Of a DNA stretch of 64,000 nucleotides, positions 9,001 through 14,852 are shown in pieces. The position numbers and the translations under genes were made by a program. Numbering within the stretch: position 1 is the first letter of the stretch; every line of letters starts with the position of its first letter. The stretch lies in the NCBI GenBank assembly GCA_020427005.1, contig JAGQOY010000001.1:65716-129715 (forward strand). The letters run 5' to 3'. Under the pieces are notes generated by a model. The model did no database searches, was not told where the DNA came from, and worked only from the letters and a program-made list of their open reading frames with translations. Source of the DNA: Planctomycetales bacterium. Its GTDB lineage: Bacteria; Planctomycetota; Planctomycetia; Pirellulales; Pirellulaceae.

Positions 9001-9432
9001 CCATTCCAAGTTTCATCTGGCCGAGTCGATCTGTTGTCCACGATCACCCACGAATTGGGGCACGTTCTGGGATTGACTCACGATCTGATCGATGCCTACT
9101 TGGAGCCTGGACTGCGGAACCTGCCCCATCTGCTCGATGACCGTCCGCAAACCGATTTTCCAGTATTTCCAACTTACCAGCTTGCAGGCCTCGATGGCCA
9201 TGAGCATACCAACCCATTGCTCGAGCAACGGGATGCAAGGCCGATCAAAATCCTGCAGTACATAGGGGTCAGTAGCAGGCCAACTTCCACGGCGGAGTTT
9301 GGATCTTGGCTTGATGAACCTCTGCTGATCCAGCGTGATCGAGAGGAAAAACAAGCCGAAGGACATGAACTGGCAATAGACGAGGCACTGGACGCTCTGA
9401 TGCAGGACCAGTTGGACGATTGGGTACGCTAA
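1..9432 (+). CDS. Giant surface/exported adhesin-like protein, 5'-truncated: PKD, multiple Calx-beta, cadherin-like/VCBS repeats, choice-of-anchor U-like domain, C-terminal metzincin-like motif
   Basis: Frame +1 is open from base 1 (VFGRDGADYGNDPFAYWRFD...), so the ORF-track start at 133 is not the true start. Repeated Calx-beta-like units (GTATxGxDY...VxIPAG...IxDD), repeated NDAPVAxDD...GLLxNDxD units, a GFVTGGGWINSP domain, and HELGHVLGLTH at 9049-9081. Confidence 0.85.
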   Translation, partial: VFGRDGADYGNDPFAYWRFDISRLSSESIVDDGGFDNNHGVYARLEDAESFETLLYASTRPNCFDVFPFGTFFGQPSYCDWPDPLPPAVVSSLPQAILPEEMTVSEGSSATVDVFKSILLEPEHQVISWDTEYDGVSFVERATTDLVVPLNTADGPNSYRVALKIRDTWGHESVAVTQVHVVNEKPTVEGLNDISGPIGSPIMISANIFDVGANDTLSIRWEIDDTLVAENVSTFEKTFTEVGEHFARLTVTDNDNAETVKQFRVVVGPPVTLQASAASLVEGQSVRLTASIESPLEDDVLVPLSYGGTAEPAKDFGESSQSPQPPTHIRIPAGSRSGFVDITNLQDSIDEEVEILQVIPGIPSNASLASSVPLSIELTDDDEAPNAFVASSSQVIVEQGITLPVIVSLDTVSGRDVVIRLGTSGTATPGADYVLQERLLVIPAGELTAATTLTIFDDNLGEGTEQIVISIEYAQNATATGESLTHVVPANDIPTIGFDSVLRNVSEAAQTHEFIINISNPADSEIVANVTLSGDAIAGVDYVVPPSNLEVTIQPGQTSVSIPIALIDNEYSEPDRSLIASISGIIGATPGPSLEHLTRIVDDDSFFLTVSSPSSVWEDEGLFIVRAELTKEAIDSIVIPLVFSGTAVRDKDYRIAFDSIVIPPGQTFGEVAIVFDDNFTPGSNLRIETTVISPPTVKLRGQSTVATTIRDNDPFVTFSALGKPPSTMLLNEGGGSRDVQIYLDRPVNHDVTVNLKAYAATASKHDFSVPSSVTIPANPNRPAIGSFSVKPTDDLTNEANESFSIAISSVSNGYGWVPHPQIRTFQIVDNDAPPEPYWIYSGATVQEGSSSLIFIGVQLARTAETDVNAKISLGGTATLGADYSVLGKSTSTFTLTFSPNTLEQWIPIVIYDDDGYEGIEYIDLHLSTGGRDPKTFTIPLKDNDSKPRKRTQFETFVDKTTDYFKDTVPFSNLISTEALSEAWESLKRTSINDLKNIEAQVCIGLAEIPTLWGTFLPKGCVSGEQIQWFIDAGIDSVRNSEAIHGAVDGATLFVDLNFNEVQDFLDLNSNGVQDFGERSEPSFETDYAGATPVAMTSDMDADRNGQFDDDELQLVSVGGTDISTGYEISVPLVAPASFSIVSPLTTLVAKLARLKDMNTEQAMSRVAAALDLPRKDLLNVNLLLLARNDDMLAADAFSKSTQVYSTAHQIAYFLSGFDNAPGTQLLGSLAMQDMAEKIRFEGSLLDLSDVFVVQSLIRGTISRSDISAPDSSLIAAAATVIASSNAMMGAVAEADGRTYVEEVARIQKVSEGSAAERLRALAEGTATEQATVNEFTGDRLAALVDASEIGNVVIPYIVADDIAVVEGDQGTQIVIINVGITDPSNLPVSVNYSTVDVSATAGSDYGSVTGTLTWSPGDTTVQQIQIPIYGDSLAETNELFHLLLTDAVNAATLETISFVQIVSDDPIEVALEDSVAVHELYLRNGEAGLQLLDNGDAIFKGSVIVNQELLIESAADSQSNLTVSFQTNESSPRVTIRYLGNGANSSLIIDPSNAASIEHIFSSSQEGRFNIDGRTIIYEDIGNVVSPVSPVISGIPTESLRYGDLLTLVGTPPSWFDSGLATNEIWTLTRDSEQVASVVGSSLSINVDAVGVYRMTYTASQEGYLPAVATFEFAILNIPPIGADDTVTTDEDHFLSVAANNGLLSNDSDEVPGELRVASINGVPVNEETPFGLASATQNSSIAYSTMNVNAGNYYGVRFEVTEPINIDRVGASFGYGLGQNPFAAIIRLDNATDVPDSYDLTSDDVLARTTIPVAYNDSGDRFGTMDLEIQPGWYALMVGGEGDSNAALRLDNVALTNPSLYLHSRLGVPEYFSITAANPTSRMRFIVEGSSTGGAATILLGSGATVTANSDGSFRYDPANSFEYLNISETAMDQFVYTITDVGGLTANATATVTVNGVNDAPVASDNSYLVSEESLMSPAASVGLLSNDSDVDSQELSVFRIENQPFGNAVTLPSGAIVTAAEEPNRFIYDPRFAFNHLTFGQIGSDSFTYTIEDEYGAQATATAYITINGWNDAPVALDDNYVVSEDLLLSPAPEVGLLANDSDPEDSQPLVTYIENQPFGTMITLASGAVITAADEPNRFIYDPRAAFAYLPGGQTGHDRFSYLVTDKDGLTAVATVNLTINGVNDAAQITGDLTEDIAEDTDFISGLLFVSDVDSGESSFAIRDLQGTYGRFILADNGSWVYDLNNALVQFLDTGETVSEAFTVWSYDGTAQATLTFLIIGGNDSDTDGVGDDVELAASAYCTIDNFSDCNRDGVDDRDQDNQVATLPNAVTGDSLTVSSPDGTTLTHVMSTTTPSFDVDLPADVEFPIGFTQFTVELAPGMEATEITLFFEKNQAFNAVYKFGFQPGQDPETDEPSVFEFPTYDESTGIGAEIHPDRIILHLRDGQFGDLDLQKNGFISDPIGLALKPGIGDDYVGLDEDGVLFFDPLLNDILPGLISITSWTQPAFGTVTFGSGVFRLEPDPNANGLDQFDYSVIDGNHQQSTATVYVTVKPINDVPVIESDTIAVEIDEGAIATVTGTWRDVDVGDSVTLSVSLGTIVKSADDRWTWSFASSDGPSESQTITVTADDGYGGVTDITFDLTVLNVAPNSVTIDPEVSEAVFAVGGLQQFRGSFEDASPVDTHSGSSTYWTFTHLDEQGVLISETRLASVTPDRQIDDSFAFENAGVYYVTLTVTDDDGSSTTSAPSTFVVYDPSAGFVTGGGWINSPPGADRQNQDLAGRVSFGFISKYQKGANTPSGQTQFNFAAGDLDFHSDSYEWLVVSGARAQFKGTGTINGLGNYGFLLTAIDGQVNGGGGVDKFRIKIWDRENLDTIRYDNQVSDDNDDNATPSTELGGGQILIHSGGKKQTMDDGGAPLNTVSAPWLTKDELQVLIVEGIKHWSQQGFSAGALDALYHVEFALADLPGYTLGTTSDSTNLIWIDVDAAGKGWNIGSQPFQVSSGRVDLLSTITHELGHVLGLTHDLIDAYLEPGLRNLPHLLDDRPQTDFPVFPTYQLAGLDGHEHTNPLLEQRDARPIKILQYIGVSSRPTSTAEFGSWLDEPLLIQRDREEKQAEGHELAIDEALDALMQDQLDDWVR

Positions 9433-9672
9433 GCGTACGCAATCGTCCTAAAGTTCGATTGAGAATCGAGTCTCAAGTGAGACAATAGTTCACGGTGCGC
9501 CTGATCTAGTTGACCAACTGCAACTGAACAGTTCGTACCAAATCAGCATAGAAAAATCGTGCGTGTGAAAACCAACACCACTAACGAACGCGAGAAACGG
9601 CGGGCAATCACTGCAAAAACTGACTCTTACTGTCCCAAAGGTTGAAAACACATTTGCCTACAGGCAAAATGT

Positions 9673-10539
9673 GTGTACGACCATCGACAGAAATTGGCTA
9701 CAACGTTCTGGGAAACCTTTTTCAGGGAAACAGTTAAAGTCATGCCAATTGCAGAAAAAGACTTTGATGGCGTCCACGTTAGCTTGGAGTCCTTTACTGC
9801 CGTAGAAAACCCGACTGGGGAAGGTGAGTTGGATTTTGAGGTAATCAAGGATTCAAGATTTGAAGTAAATGGACAGAATGAGTCAGGGCATTTGATAAAA
9901 ATTGCGTACTTCGGAGGCGGATCGGTTTTCGGGACAAGGGAGACGGAGCCTGCGATTAGATTTGAAGCATCCTTTTCCGTAACACCTGACGACAACCGTG
10001 ATATTAGACTAGGCTTTATTCAATTCGTGGAGCGTACTGAGCGTGTGGCTTCCTACGATGGCGGGGTCCTGTTCTATAAGCGTTCCGAGGAACGTCTGTT
10101 AGACTGTATGCCTGCTCGGGATCTTGAACGAGAAATCGCTTCCGGCAGCCAAGGTTCGGCTCTTGTAGCCCGGAGTGATTTTGGGTTGTACCCGTTCCTC
10201 GGCAAAAGCGTTCGGGCGGCGTCTGCCACGGAGACTTGGGCGACGGACAATCCCAATTGGTCAGCACCATTCAAATTTCGTGGACGGGAAATCTCGTCGT
10301 TGAAAGTTGCAGACTCCTTCACAACGTACTTTGCGGTCGATCTCGGAGGAGTCTTTCGCACACTTGCAAGAGTCAAATGGAATATTGATTATGATTACTT
10401 TCCATTCGGCGCAATTGACATTGGAAACGCCTTAGGCTTTCTCACAATTGAGGGAGTCTTGCCAGTCGACGACGAGCTGTTGGTGGATCTACCAGTTGCA
10501 AACAGCCTGAACACGCTGGGGACACATCGAACTTCTTGA
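9673..10539 (+). CDS. Hypothetical protein with possible FAM78-like fold (likely start ATG 9742)
   Basis: 288-aa open frame. Motifs GFIQ, YPFLG, DNPNWSAP, DSFTTYF and TLARVKW occur in the order I recall for FAM78; this is unverified. Confidence 0.6.
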   Translation: MYDHRQKLATTFWETFFRETVKVMPIAEKDFDGVHVSLESFTAVENPTGEGELDFEVIKDSRFEVNGQNESGHLIKIAYFGGGSVFGTRETEPAIRFEASFSVTPDDNRDIRLGFIQFVERTERVASYDGGVLFYKRSEERLLDCMPARDLEREIASGSQGSALVARSDFGLYPFLGKSVRAASATETWATDNPNWSAPFKFRGREISSLKVADSFTTYFAVDLGGVFRTLARVKWNIDYDYFPFGAIDIGNALGFLTIEGVLPVDDELLVDLPVANSLNTLGTHRTS

Positions 10540-10616
10540 AAGCGTTCGACTTGCAGAATCCCCAGGGCGCAATTGATTTGTTCACCGATTTATGAATGGA
10601 TGGTTCAGAAGAATTA

Positions 10617-10646
10617 GCGTTGGTTCGCGGAGCGAACCACGACTAT
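10617..10646 (-). repeat. REP element, family 1 (ATAGTCGTGGTTCGCTCCGCGAACCAACGC), directly after the RAYT stop codon
   Basis: Exact 30-bp copy containing the 8-bp hairpin TGGTTCGC-TCC-GCGAACCA; its first base is the last base of the RAYT TGA. Confidence 0.9.
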
Positions 10647-11104
10647 CAGTAATATCTTCGATAGAGGTACTCGCCTGGATTTAGACCGGCTTTGTCGGGA
10701 TTCGATTGGATGTACTGGCGCAAGTATTCGTACTGCTCTGGACTGCGAACGAGGTGATCGAACGGCTCCTGCTGCCAAAAGTGTTCGCAAGATCCGATCA
10801 CTCGGTTTATGCGAAATGCCGTGTAGTGCAACCAGGAATCGAATTGCTTTTCCATGCGTTCAGGTGTGTCGAATGCAGCCAGCAAGTGAACATGGTTTGG
10901 CATGATTACAAAGTCGCCCATCCGGTATCGATCGCCATCAAAGTGCAGCAGCGAATCGGCCACGATTTGAGCTAGCTCTGGTTTTTTCAGCAAGCATGCT
11001 CCGAGGCATTCATCGAGTTTCATTTCACGGCAGCGATTGAAATGAAACTCGAATGGATGCCGCTCCGCATCCGTCAGCAGCGGCAATAGCCTTGACCAAT
11101 GTTG

Positions 11105-11134
11105 ATAGTCGTGGTTCGCTCCGCGAACCAACGC
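11105..11134 (+). repeat. REP family 1 copy inside the RAYT coding sequence
   Basis: Exact 30-bp copy; read as ALVRGANHDY in the RAYT frame. Confidence 0.9.
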
Positions 11135-11220
11135 CTGTTGATTTCTGCAATCGACACTGTCTTGTGGATTTGAGTCGTTAGCATTGTGGCCTGTGGGTGA
11201 TGAACTTGGATTAGTTTCAA

Positions 11221-11249
11221 GCGTTGGCTCGCAGAGTGAACCACGAGTG
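11221..11249 (-). repeat. Degenerate REP family 1 copy inside the RAYT coding sequence, inverted partner of 11105-11134
   Basis: gcgttggctcgcagagtgaaccacgagtg versus consensus gcgttggttcgcggagcgaaccacgacta; read as TRGSLCEPTL in the RAYT frame. Confidence 0.8.
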
Positions 11250-11441
11250 CCGAGTACACGCACAATCCAAGTTTGTTTTTCGCTATCCCAGCGTGTGAGG
11301 ACTTCCTTTGGGATGGAGTCCACTGTACGAAAAGTCACAAAGACGATTGCGCCCGCTTGAGACCAGTGCGGCCGCAATCGTTCATGAACAAGGACTTCCG
11401 CTTTCGGGTCAAACAGTTCTCCAAGCACCGTTAGCCTCTTA

Positions 11442-11689
11442 ATAGTCGTGGTTCGCTCCGCGAACCAACGCTTCTTAAATCAACACTCCTCCCACGCTCC
11501 AACTCGCCGATGCTCTTCCAGTCAGGATTTCTCCGCTAATACAAACTAGTTTTTTCAAAGCGTTTGCAGTATCCAGACTGTGCGGGATGGACAGCGTTCG
11601 GGCGGTTCGCAAGGTTATAGCATACTGCAAATTGAATGCTGAGATGCAATTGTTAGGAGGCGTTGGTTCGCGGAGCGAACCACGACTAT
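11442..11689. repeat. Inverted REP doublet (REPIN-like) upstream of RAYT: arms 11442-11471 and 11660-11689
   Basis: Two exact 30-bp copies in inverted orientation, separated by a 188-nt spacer. Confidence 0.9.
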
Positions 11690-12089
11690 TTTGCACTCCA
11701 CACGAATACGCTTCCACGCTGATTTTTGACTGAGTAGCATCAACGGAAAATTAAGAGATTTCAGATTATTCGCCAAGCGAAGAATCCTTGAACAGTGAAG
11801 CAGTTAGGCTAGCTTTCTTTAGGTGTAGGTTGGCAAATTCAATGCTACTTTTAGATTCGAAACAAGCAGCAATTGGCACCAGTTCATTATGAGAGCGGTC
11901 GTCCGGATAACGACGAAATCGCTAAACGCGATCAGGACTTTGATACTGCTGGCGATGATGCGTCTAAGATTCGCCGGCTGGGCATTTGCGATTCATAGGA
12001 ATAGACATGTTGGAGTACACGGCCGAATTAAACTAAGTTAGACTACTTTTGGTGTACGAAAAAGAAGTGCGATTCTGAACAGCAGACTA

Positions 12090-14054: not shown

Positions 14055-14852
14055 ATGCCTAATCCAACTTATCACGTGGTTGTTTTCCGACTTGCCGTGG
14101 CGCTTGCTTTTGTCCCTTTGAACTGCCGCGTAGGCGTTACCCAGACTGTTCAGAAACTCGAGGGAACATACCTTGGCATCACCACCAACCTGGAGGCAGC
14201 TCGGCCACTTTCGGCTTCGATGCTCATTGACTCCCAAGAGAACCGGCAATTCGATGGTCTGCTGGACATCGAAGCTGAGGACGGTATCGGAACGCTATAC
14301 AAATCTGTGATCGGAACCATTGCGGCCAGCGGAAATTGTGTTATCCAGGCGGATGGTTTGGATGGGAAATCTGTTCTTTCGCTCGATTGGACAAAAATCG
14401 ATTCCGCTGGACTGTTGGTCGGCAAGGTGGTGATCAATCACGAGGAGCAATTTCGCCCCCTGGCCCTGCTACGACCATTCAGCGATCTGAGCGTAAACTG
14501 GGGAGGTGGCGTTACTATCTCAATGCCAGTGAAATTCATGAGCGCATTCACGGGCAAAGTATCTGAATTGCCGTTGCAGATCACCGGCGGCACCATCGGA
14601 GTAATGGAAGCAGAGTATATCGAGCAGGAAACCTTGATGCGAATGCTTCTCACGACGAATCGAGACGGGCATTTTGCTGGAATTTCGGTCACCGAATCCA
14701 GCACTTATGTTCTGGAGGGTCAAGTAAAGTTCGATGACTTTGGGAATCCAGGAACACTGCTCGGGAGCTATTCCAATTTCTCAATCACCGGCAAGTTGAT
14801 CGACGCCGGAAGTGTTGAGCTTTGGACCTCATTCGAGGAGACTGAGAAGTAG
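14055..14852 (+). CDS. Hypothetical exported beta-rich protein
   Basis: 265-aa ORF with a hydrophobic N-terminal leader and a Gly/beta-strand-rich body; no recognised family. Confidence 0.6.
   Translation: MPNPTYHVVVFRLAVALAFVPLNCRVGVTQTVQKLEGTYLGITTNLEAARPLSASMLIDSQENRQFDGLLDIEAEDGIGTLYKSVIGTIAASGNCVIQADGLDGKSVLSLDWTKIDSAGLLVGKVVINHEEQFRPLALLRPFSDLSVNWGGGVTISMPVKFMSAFTGKVSELPLQITGGTIGVMEAEYIEQETLMRMLLTTNRDGHFAGISVTESSTYVLEGQVKFDDFGNPGTLLGSYSNFSITGKLIDAGSVELWTSFEETEK

Follow-up and report, generated by a model that had tools for sequence, protein, structure and literature searches.

The gene at positions 9742..10539 (+ strand) of the window, i.e., the whole 64,000-nucleotide stretch of Planctomycetales bacterium DNA that was analyzed, quite probably encodes a stand-alone protein that belongs, as a highly divergent member, to a beta-sandwich family holding the vertebrate proteins FAM78A/B together with C-terminal modules of a few Planctomycetota proteins. 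The earlier note had likened the product of this gene, here called P0002, to human FAM78A on the strength of an ordered set of motifs. By our sequence comparisons, P0002 is with good probability a FAM78 homologue in a remote, transitive sense, linked via bacterial intermediates. The resemblance stands when vertebrate and bacterial sequences are combined in a joint profile, but it does not stand as a direct match to FAM78 alone.

P0002 is 265 aa long when read from the ATG at 9742, and an alternative in-frame start, the GTG at 9673, gives 288 aa, with the TGA stop at 10537-10539 (+ strand). Both start forms are recorded, and the 90% cluster of P0002 consists of just two start variants of one gene. 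In a codon log-odds model whose training set was 883 long ORFs from this genome, ORF 9742-10539 scores 0.182 per codon, compared to 0.171 +/- 0.036 for long genes, and the other five frames at this position score from -0.30 to -1.11. Since the codon score matches that of the genome's long genes and the remaining frames are negative, the frame is not open by chance but is a genuine coding gene resident in this genome. Its product has an acidic pI of 4.65, a mass of ~29 kDa and a single Cys. With no signal peptide, hydrophobic N-terminus or membrane helix detected by hydropathy from either start, P0002 should be soluble and cytoplasmic. No recognizable ribosome-binding site precedes the ORF. A promoter-like site at 9642..9670 (+) consists of consensus matches only, in a number expected by chance, and it is overlapped by a perfect palindrome, TTTGCCT-GT-AGGCAAA, at 9653-9668 just 5' of the ORF.

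All motifs quoted in the earlier note are found in the translation of P0002 and in the order given there. Numbered from Met 9742, these are FEASFSVTP at residues 74-82, LGFIQ at 90-94, YPFLG at 150-154, TDNPNWSAP at 168-176, ISSLKVADSFTTYFAV at 184-199, TLARVKWNIDY at 207-217 and PVAN at 251-254.

By itself, P0002 is an orphan without close relatives. It has no match in the Pfam, NCBIfam, PADLOC and PHROGs libraries or among the PDB sequences, word-indexed protein searches with the whole protein or with residues 72-225 returned only P0002 itself, and an exhaustive phmmer search of 1.84 billion cluster representatives gave self only and no homologue at E <= 0.001. Three weak phmmer matches (an ankyrin-repeat, an Ig-repeat and a membrane protein) were judged spurious. 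Searches of 60 relatives and of 400 genomes from its order likewise gave no homologue, and a search of its own genome with P0002 itself gave no paralogue. Weak tblastn and HMM matches in the relatives (L002-L011, E 0.004-0.04) were rejected because their numbers fit chance, and those inspected lay in wrong frames or in unrelated proteins; the match in L006 is antisense to a 329-aa ORF that by eye looks like a phosphatidylserine decarboxylase. The ESM Atlas neighbors of P0002 are unnamed clusters with chance-level scores, and its language-model neighbors do not overlap with those of FAM78B.

To our knowledge, FAM78A/B are conserved vertebrate proteins without a known fold assignment, domain model or function, and the family presumably goes by this name in PANTHER/InterPro. 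A 61-residue FAM78 fragment served as a hook only and proved to be a 100% match to mammalian FAM78B; all work after this seed used database sequences only. The seed search returned 278 FAM78A/B proteins, and among the matches listed, 120 of 120 are from vertebrates. An alignment of 24 full-length FAM78A/B sequences (A1) has a mean column identity of 66%, i.e., vertebrate FAM78 is strongly conserved, and P0002 is a singleton. Pfam contains no model for FAM78. The motifs that the earlier note gives for FAM78A were essentially right, as A1 contains FRASA[QR]V, GWIQ, YPWYG and NDNFYPSVTW[AG]VP, together with the further motifs RDQSFTTWLVA, LQTIKW and PNAND. Nearly all full-length FAM78A/B in A1 also carry MGC[IL][QH]S, either N-terminally or after a predicted leader extension. 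MGCxxS is an established consensus for N-myristoylation plus palmitoylation, and the FAM78 motif fits this pattern on paper; a literature search joining FAM78 with myristoylation found no paper. P0002 begins with MPIAEK (MYDHRQ from the GTG) and has neither Gly2 nor Cys3, so that MGCxxS is absent.

The similarity of P0002 to FAM78 alone is not significant. BLASTP of P0002 against FAM78A/B gives E-values above 4, hhalign against A1 gives 0.3% and aligns the F-x-A-S/G-F-I-Q stretch only, and the FAM78 HMM has no match at E <= 10 in the genome of P0002. With all filters off, this HMM scores P0002 at -2.2 bits, which is equaled by 253 of 2000 shuffles, and a FAM78-only profile ranks P0002 2104 among the genome's 18,598 ORFs. 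An alignment to the A1 profile with lenient gaps recovers the motif pairing proposed in the earlier note (139 columns, 40 identities). By this score P0002 is 13th of 914, with 12 of 913 native proteins of similar length equaling or beating it, a rank that is about chance level for a family proposed without a database search.

As to bacterial INTERMEDIATES, the FAM78 profile A1 gave one match over 401 genomes of the phylum Planctomycetota (G452, E 2.2e-4). This match, the last 200 residues of a protein that contains FN3, bears the FAM78 motifs, and hhalign aligns the domain (P0127) with A1 at 91% (E 1e-6). Relatives of the G452 domain come from MAGs and metagenome contigs, the sources being the small-genome Planctomycetota MAGs G452, G488, G539 and G838 (loci L021-L031) and the contigs Ga0208373_1004100 and Ga0265292_1000413 (with metagenome L030 among loci L021-L031). 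Six bacterial domains make up alignment A2, which matches A1 in hhalign at 95.4% (E 1.9e-8, 142 columns). The MAG-type domains are always the C-terminal module of proteins of 600-1045 aa, most of them with fn3 and FIMAH domains, and the proteins carrying these modules are presumably extracellular. A third, more distant type is found at the C-terminus of a 1224-aa protein with CarboxypepD_reg (G766:C31, L039:1381-2181) and has the motifs LRVGLAQNL, SNDTPS, HFVTWVV and FANDAP. Pfam has no model for the bacterial domain, and the family profile has no match among PDB sequences. Pattern scans with A1 in GTDB genomes gave nothing, and those with A2 gave one known MAG, two metagenome contigs and zero viral contigs. 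Because the bacterial domain family was found with the FAM78 profile and P0002 was not used, it is independent of P0002. Judged by these profile matches, the FAM78-like family is not vertebrate-only. In the literature searched, whose coverage was partial, FAM78 appeared in association and expression lists only, and we found no report of bacterial FAM78 relatives.

On the genome of P0002 itself, the A2 HMM matched not P0002 but P0128 (E 1.2e-7), a 475-aa protein encoded outside the window on the + strand of contig C22 (G000 contig C22:27,007-28,431 = L032:607-2034). The C-terminus of P0128 is a FAM78-like domain that ends in the fashion of FAM78 with PTANDSITIHWRKP (P-T-A-N-D-S-I-T-I-H-W-R-K-P). 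The protein has ~270 extra N-terminal residues and no recognizable signal peptide; part of this extension resembles, on visual inspection, a peptidoglycan-binding repeat, with Pfam blank at E 0.01. Orthologues of P0128 are present in 1 of 48 genomes of the genus (G033, 71%) and in 0 of 400 genomes of the order, and Pfam annotation of its neighborhood (RTX-calpain, Ser/Thr kinase, group II intron RT, PqiA/MlaD) gave no functional lead.

P0128 is the nearest single sequence to P0002. BLASTP aligns the two at E 0.004 with 32/136 identities (24%), colinear and in the expected register over P0002 residues 87-217, and P0002 and A2 align colinearly in hhalign over 126 columns (P 0.0076). A profile called F+A+B was built from 8 FAM78 sequences, 7 MAG domains and two P0128-type domains, with P0002 left out. 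It was run by hmmsearch --max on the genome's full set of 18,598 stop-to-stop ORFs with a length of 90 aa or more. P0128 came first and P0002 second (E 5.4e-4, 19.9 bits), which makes P0002 the top non-member; the best ORF after it has E 2 and 8.2 bits, i.e., there is an 11-bit gap to the noise. The F+A profile, which contains no sequence of P0002's genome, also places P0128 first (1.3e-10) and P0002 second (E 0.0076). With other profile make-ups, P0002 ranks 2-3 when only bacterial sequences are used and 17-23 when one bacterial clade is used with or without FAM78. The HMMER E-values for P0002 are modest, ranging from 5e-4 to 0.03 by profile make-up, and several make-ups were tried. Since the ranks drop with FAM78-only or single-clade profiles, the signal of P0002 needs the diversity of the joint profile.

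The hmmsearch domain covers residues 66-218 of P0002 (98-250 of the 297-aa stop-to-stop frame) at 17.6 bits. In hhalign, P0002 matches the joint vertebrate and bacterial alignment A3 at 93.5% (E 2.4e-7, 137 columns, residues 66-219, score 54.4). The same comparison gave at most 4.7% and a score of at most 25.5 for 250 native proteins, 0% for the reversed P0002 and at most 1.5% for 40 shuffles, and in a separate shuffle control 3000 shuffles reached at most 4.5 bits compared to 20.3 for P0002. When all members were aligned with MAFFT, P0002 matched 15 of the 24 columns conserved at >= 80%, in order. The match to A3 thus extends over residues 66-219 but not over the full length, as the first 65 residues of P0002 match nothing.

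In the window, the FAM78-like core lies at 9937..10398 (+; residues 66-219) and is aligned to the family profile by hhalign with A3, hmmsearch and BLASTP with P0128. The motif order of the family is W-x-x-G-x-[IL]-Q, Y, D, P, D-[NT]-x-x-P, F-x-T-W-x-x-A-x-N, L ... W, P-x-A-N-D, W. P0002 keeps the conserved G, Q, Y, D, P, D-N-P, P, F-x-T, L, W, P and P-x-A-N, and it has lost the first W (Ile), the W of T-W (Tyr), A-x-N and T-x-E as well as, C-terminally, the D of A-N-D (Ser) and the last W. LGFIQ at 10009..10023 (+) corresponds to the family motif W-x-[LVI]-G-[WYFL]-[ILM]-[QE], with G and Q kept and the W three residues upstream replaced by Ile. LLDCMP at 10096..10113 (+) pairs with L-[LA]-L-D-x-x-P of the bacterial MAG clade; this pairing comes from hhalign with A2, while the family-wide MAFFT left LLDCMP unaligned, and the FAM78 counterpart is AISDSDG. 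The stretch YPFLG ... TDNPNWSAP at 10189..10269 (+) has its FAM78 counterparts in YPWYG and NDNFYPSVTWAVP, and the two-strand hairpin that FAM78 has between them (strands 121-125 and 132-141 in the FAM78B model) is absent from P0002. DSFTTYFAV ... TLARVKWNIDY at 10312..10392 (+) represents the family beta-hairpin F-x-T-W-L-V-A-x-N ... L-x-x-x-K-W, of which P0002 keeps F, T, L and W, has Y in place of one W, and has lost A-x-N and T-x-E. The C-terminal stretch P ... LLV-x-x-P-V-A-N-S at 10462..10506 (+) resembles P-x-x-x-A-L-V-K-P-N-A-N-D of FAM78 and P-P-L-A-N-D of the bacterial domains; it is aligned in the multiple alignment (MAFFT) only and lies outside the local alignments of hhalign and HMMER.

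It is unlikely that P0002 is instead a lineage-specific orphan whose resemblance to FAM78 is due to chance or convergence, e.g., through beta-strand patterns and aromatic plus Gly motifs. Such an origin would fit with the failure to find any homologue at E <= 0.001 in the 1.84 billion representatives, with the absence of P0002 from the 60 relatives and 400 order genomes searched, with the ~1 in 75 native proteins that equal its FAM78-only profile score, and with the fact that significance arises with mixed profiles only. However, chance would hardly put P0002 second of 18,598 and 11 bits above noise, second again with a profile free of own-genome sequences, and at 93.5% in hhalign where none of 250 native proteins exceeds 4.7%, and its matches sit on columns conserved across the family (15/24). 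A different origin is suggested by the neighborhood. The other bacterial members seen are all C-terminal domains of proteins of 475-1224 aa, P0002 being the only leaderless single-domain bacterial member, and a giant Calx/cadherin/Big_9/PKD surface protein ends at 9432, with the ORF starting 310 bp downstream, its strand (+) and reading frame being those of the giant gene. Together with the several family invariants lost in P0002, this would suit a decaying remnant, formerly a C-terminal FAM78-like module and cut from a large surface protein such as the giant adhesin.

We nevertheless consider a remnant very unlikely. A 17-bp inverted repeat at 9414..9448 (+; 94% complementary, 1-nt gap) straddles the stop codon of the giant gene, and five more in-frame stops follow before the ORF opens, giving six in total. 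Because of the six in-frame stops and the stop-straddling hairpin, the ORF stands as a gene in its own right rather than as a C-terminus that has recently split off, and the description of P0002 as a stand-alone bacterial protein of 265 aa is thereby upheld. In addition, the first 65 residues of P0002 are its own, its frame of 265 codons is intact and its codon usage is fully native, and neither of the two paralogous giant genes (on C496 and C502) is followed by a similar gene. Less likely still, to the point of being barely credible, is that ORF 9742-10539 is no gene but a chance open frame in an intergenic region beside REP elements. The lack of homologues and of a recognizable ribosome-binding site and the chance level of the promoter-like matches are in line with such a frame, but it would have to remain open for 265 codons in a genome of ~50% G+C, to equal the mean codon score of real genes with five other frames negative, and to yield a significant profile match to a protein family.

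As a divergent member of the FAM78-like family, P0002 would fold like the FAM78B model, i.e., as an all-beta sandwich with core strands including FKASARV, WVVGWIQ and SFTTWLVA...KWRMRV. The sandwich would be without one internal hairpin and would be preceded by the protein's own 65-residue, beta-rich N-terminus. The AF2 single-sequence model of P0002 is poor, with a pLDDT of 33 (the Atlas model has a pLDDT of 0.36), and has predicted strands at 192-201 and 204-214; the strand positions in this poor model fit those of FAM78B at two places, the F-x-A-S strand and the S-F-T-T/K-W hairpin. Foldseek and VIA-align searches with the FAM78B model returned generic sandwiches only. Its best structural neighbors are Ig-like and ASF1-like beta-sandwiches, with scores that are common for unrelated sandwiches; this structure comparison was made for the FAM78B model alone, and no PDB chain is related by sequence.

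Tentatively, the likeliest mode of action for the family would be that of a putative non-catalytic binding module. This is suggested by the conserved set, which consists mainly of aromatics, Gly, Pro, Asp, Asn and Gln and contains no His, Cys, Ser or Lys, and by the C-terminal location of the bacterial domain in FN3/FIMAH/Ig-rich surface proteins, a place typical of a binding module. It is equally conceivable that the D, E, N and Q conserved in the family belong to an enzyme's active site or to a metal site, and P0002 would be inactive if catalysis depended on T-x-E or A-x-N.

Like P0002, the vertebrate FAM78A/B are stand-alone proteins of ~260-290 residues without a signal peptide. They share with P0002 the ordered motifs F-x-A-S, G-[WF]-I-Q ... 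Y, Y-P-[WF]-x-G and D-N ... W-x-x-P, and further S-F-T-T-[WY], L ... K-W and P-x-A-N. Unlike FAM78A/B, P0002 has no MGCxxS, no counterpart of the FAM78B 121-141 hairpin, no T-x-E turn and no final L-M-W-R-P, and its first 65 residues are unrelated. P0128 resembles P0002 in that it is from the same genome, has no recognizable signal peptide and is nearly an orphan, whereas it differs in being a clear family member (A2 HMM 1.2e-7; F+A 1.3e-10) with its ~270 additional N-terminal residues. The FN3/FIMAH modules of the MAGs share L-G-[FY]-[IL]-Q-x-V ... Y, L-L-D-x-x-P, D-[TN]-P and P-[LV]-A-N with P0002. However, the MAG and G766 modules end multi-domain proteins of 600-1224 aa (fn3, FIMAH, CarboxypepD_reg), while P0002 is a single leaderless domain.

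A wider reading, which we put forward as speculative and rather improbable, is that FAM78 is part of an unrecognized beta-sandwich family with a patchy distribution in Planctomycetota, that the vertebrate genes arose by transfer from bacteria, and that the leaderless bacterial proteins share an ancestral activity with them. The Planctomycetota forms would then comprise surface-protein modules, a non-FN3 multi-domain protein without a recognizable signal peptide, and a leaderless single domain. If this were true, the activity of FAM78 could be worked out in bacteria. The bacterial relatives offer a more diverse alignment that shows which residues define the FAM78-like domain, as well as genomic contexts and small soluble proteins for expression, crystallization and ligand screens. 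For annotation, about 12 'hypothetical' Planctomycetota proteins can be assigned to one definable domain family that is missing from Pfam. The expectation that P0002 would give a tractable handle on FAM78 suits other bacterial relatives better than P0002 itself; it is the most divergent and least informative member of the family, and the clearer homologues P0128 and the MAG proteins are the better handles.

Regarding the surroundings of the gene, the location between a giant adhesin and a RAYT is as described in the earlier note, with the giant gene ending at 9432 and a RAYT-like gene on the minus strand at 10646-11428 (260-codon frame; Y1_Tnp E 0.0017). The giant adhesin-like protein contains HELGHVLGLTH (HExxHxxGxxH, zinc-metalloprotease-type) at 9049-9081, ~125 residues before its C-terminus, and its C-terminal region has two paralogues in the genome, with 52% (C496) and 47% (C502) identity. 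Another 265-codon ORF, at 14055-14852 (+), has no Pfam match and is unlike P0002. Rfam gave nothing over 9300-11800. Five REP-type palindromes (core TGGTTCGCGGAGCGAACCA) lie around the RAYT-like gene (window 10617-11690), at 10617, 11103, 11221, 11441 and 11660. The first of these (10617..10646, +) is located 78 bp past the stop of the ORF and may form a 3' hairpin for its transcript. Two REP copies lie inside the RAYT-like frame and are read through in frame, which may explain why the Y1_Tnp match is limited to the C-terminal part of the RAYT-like protein.
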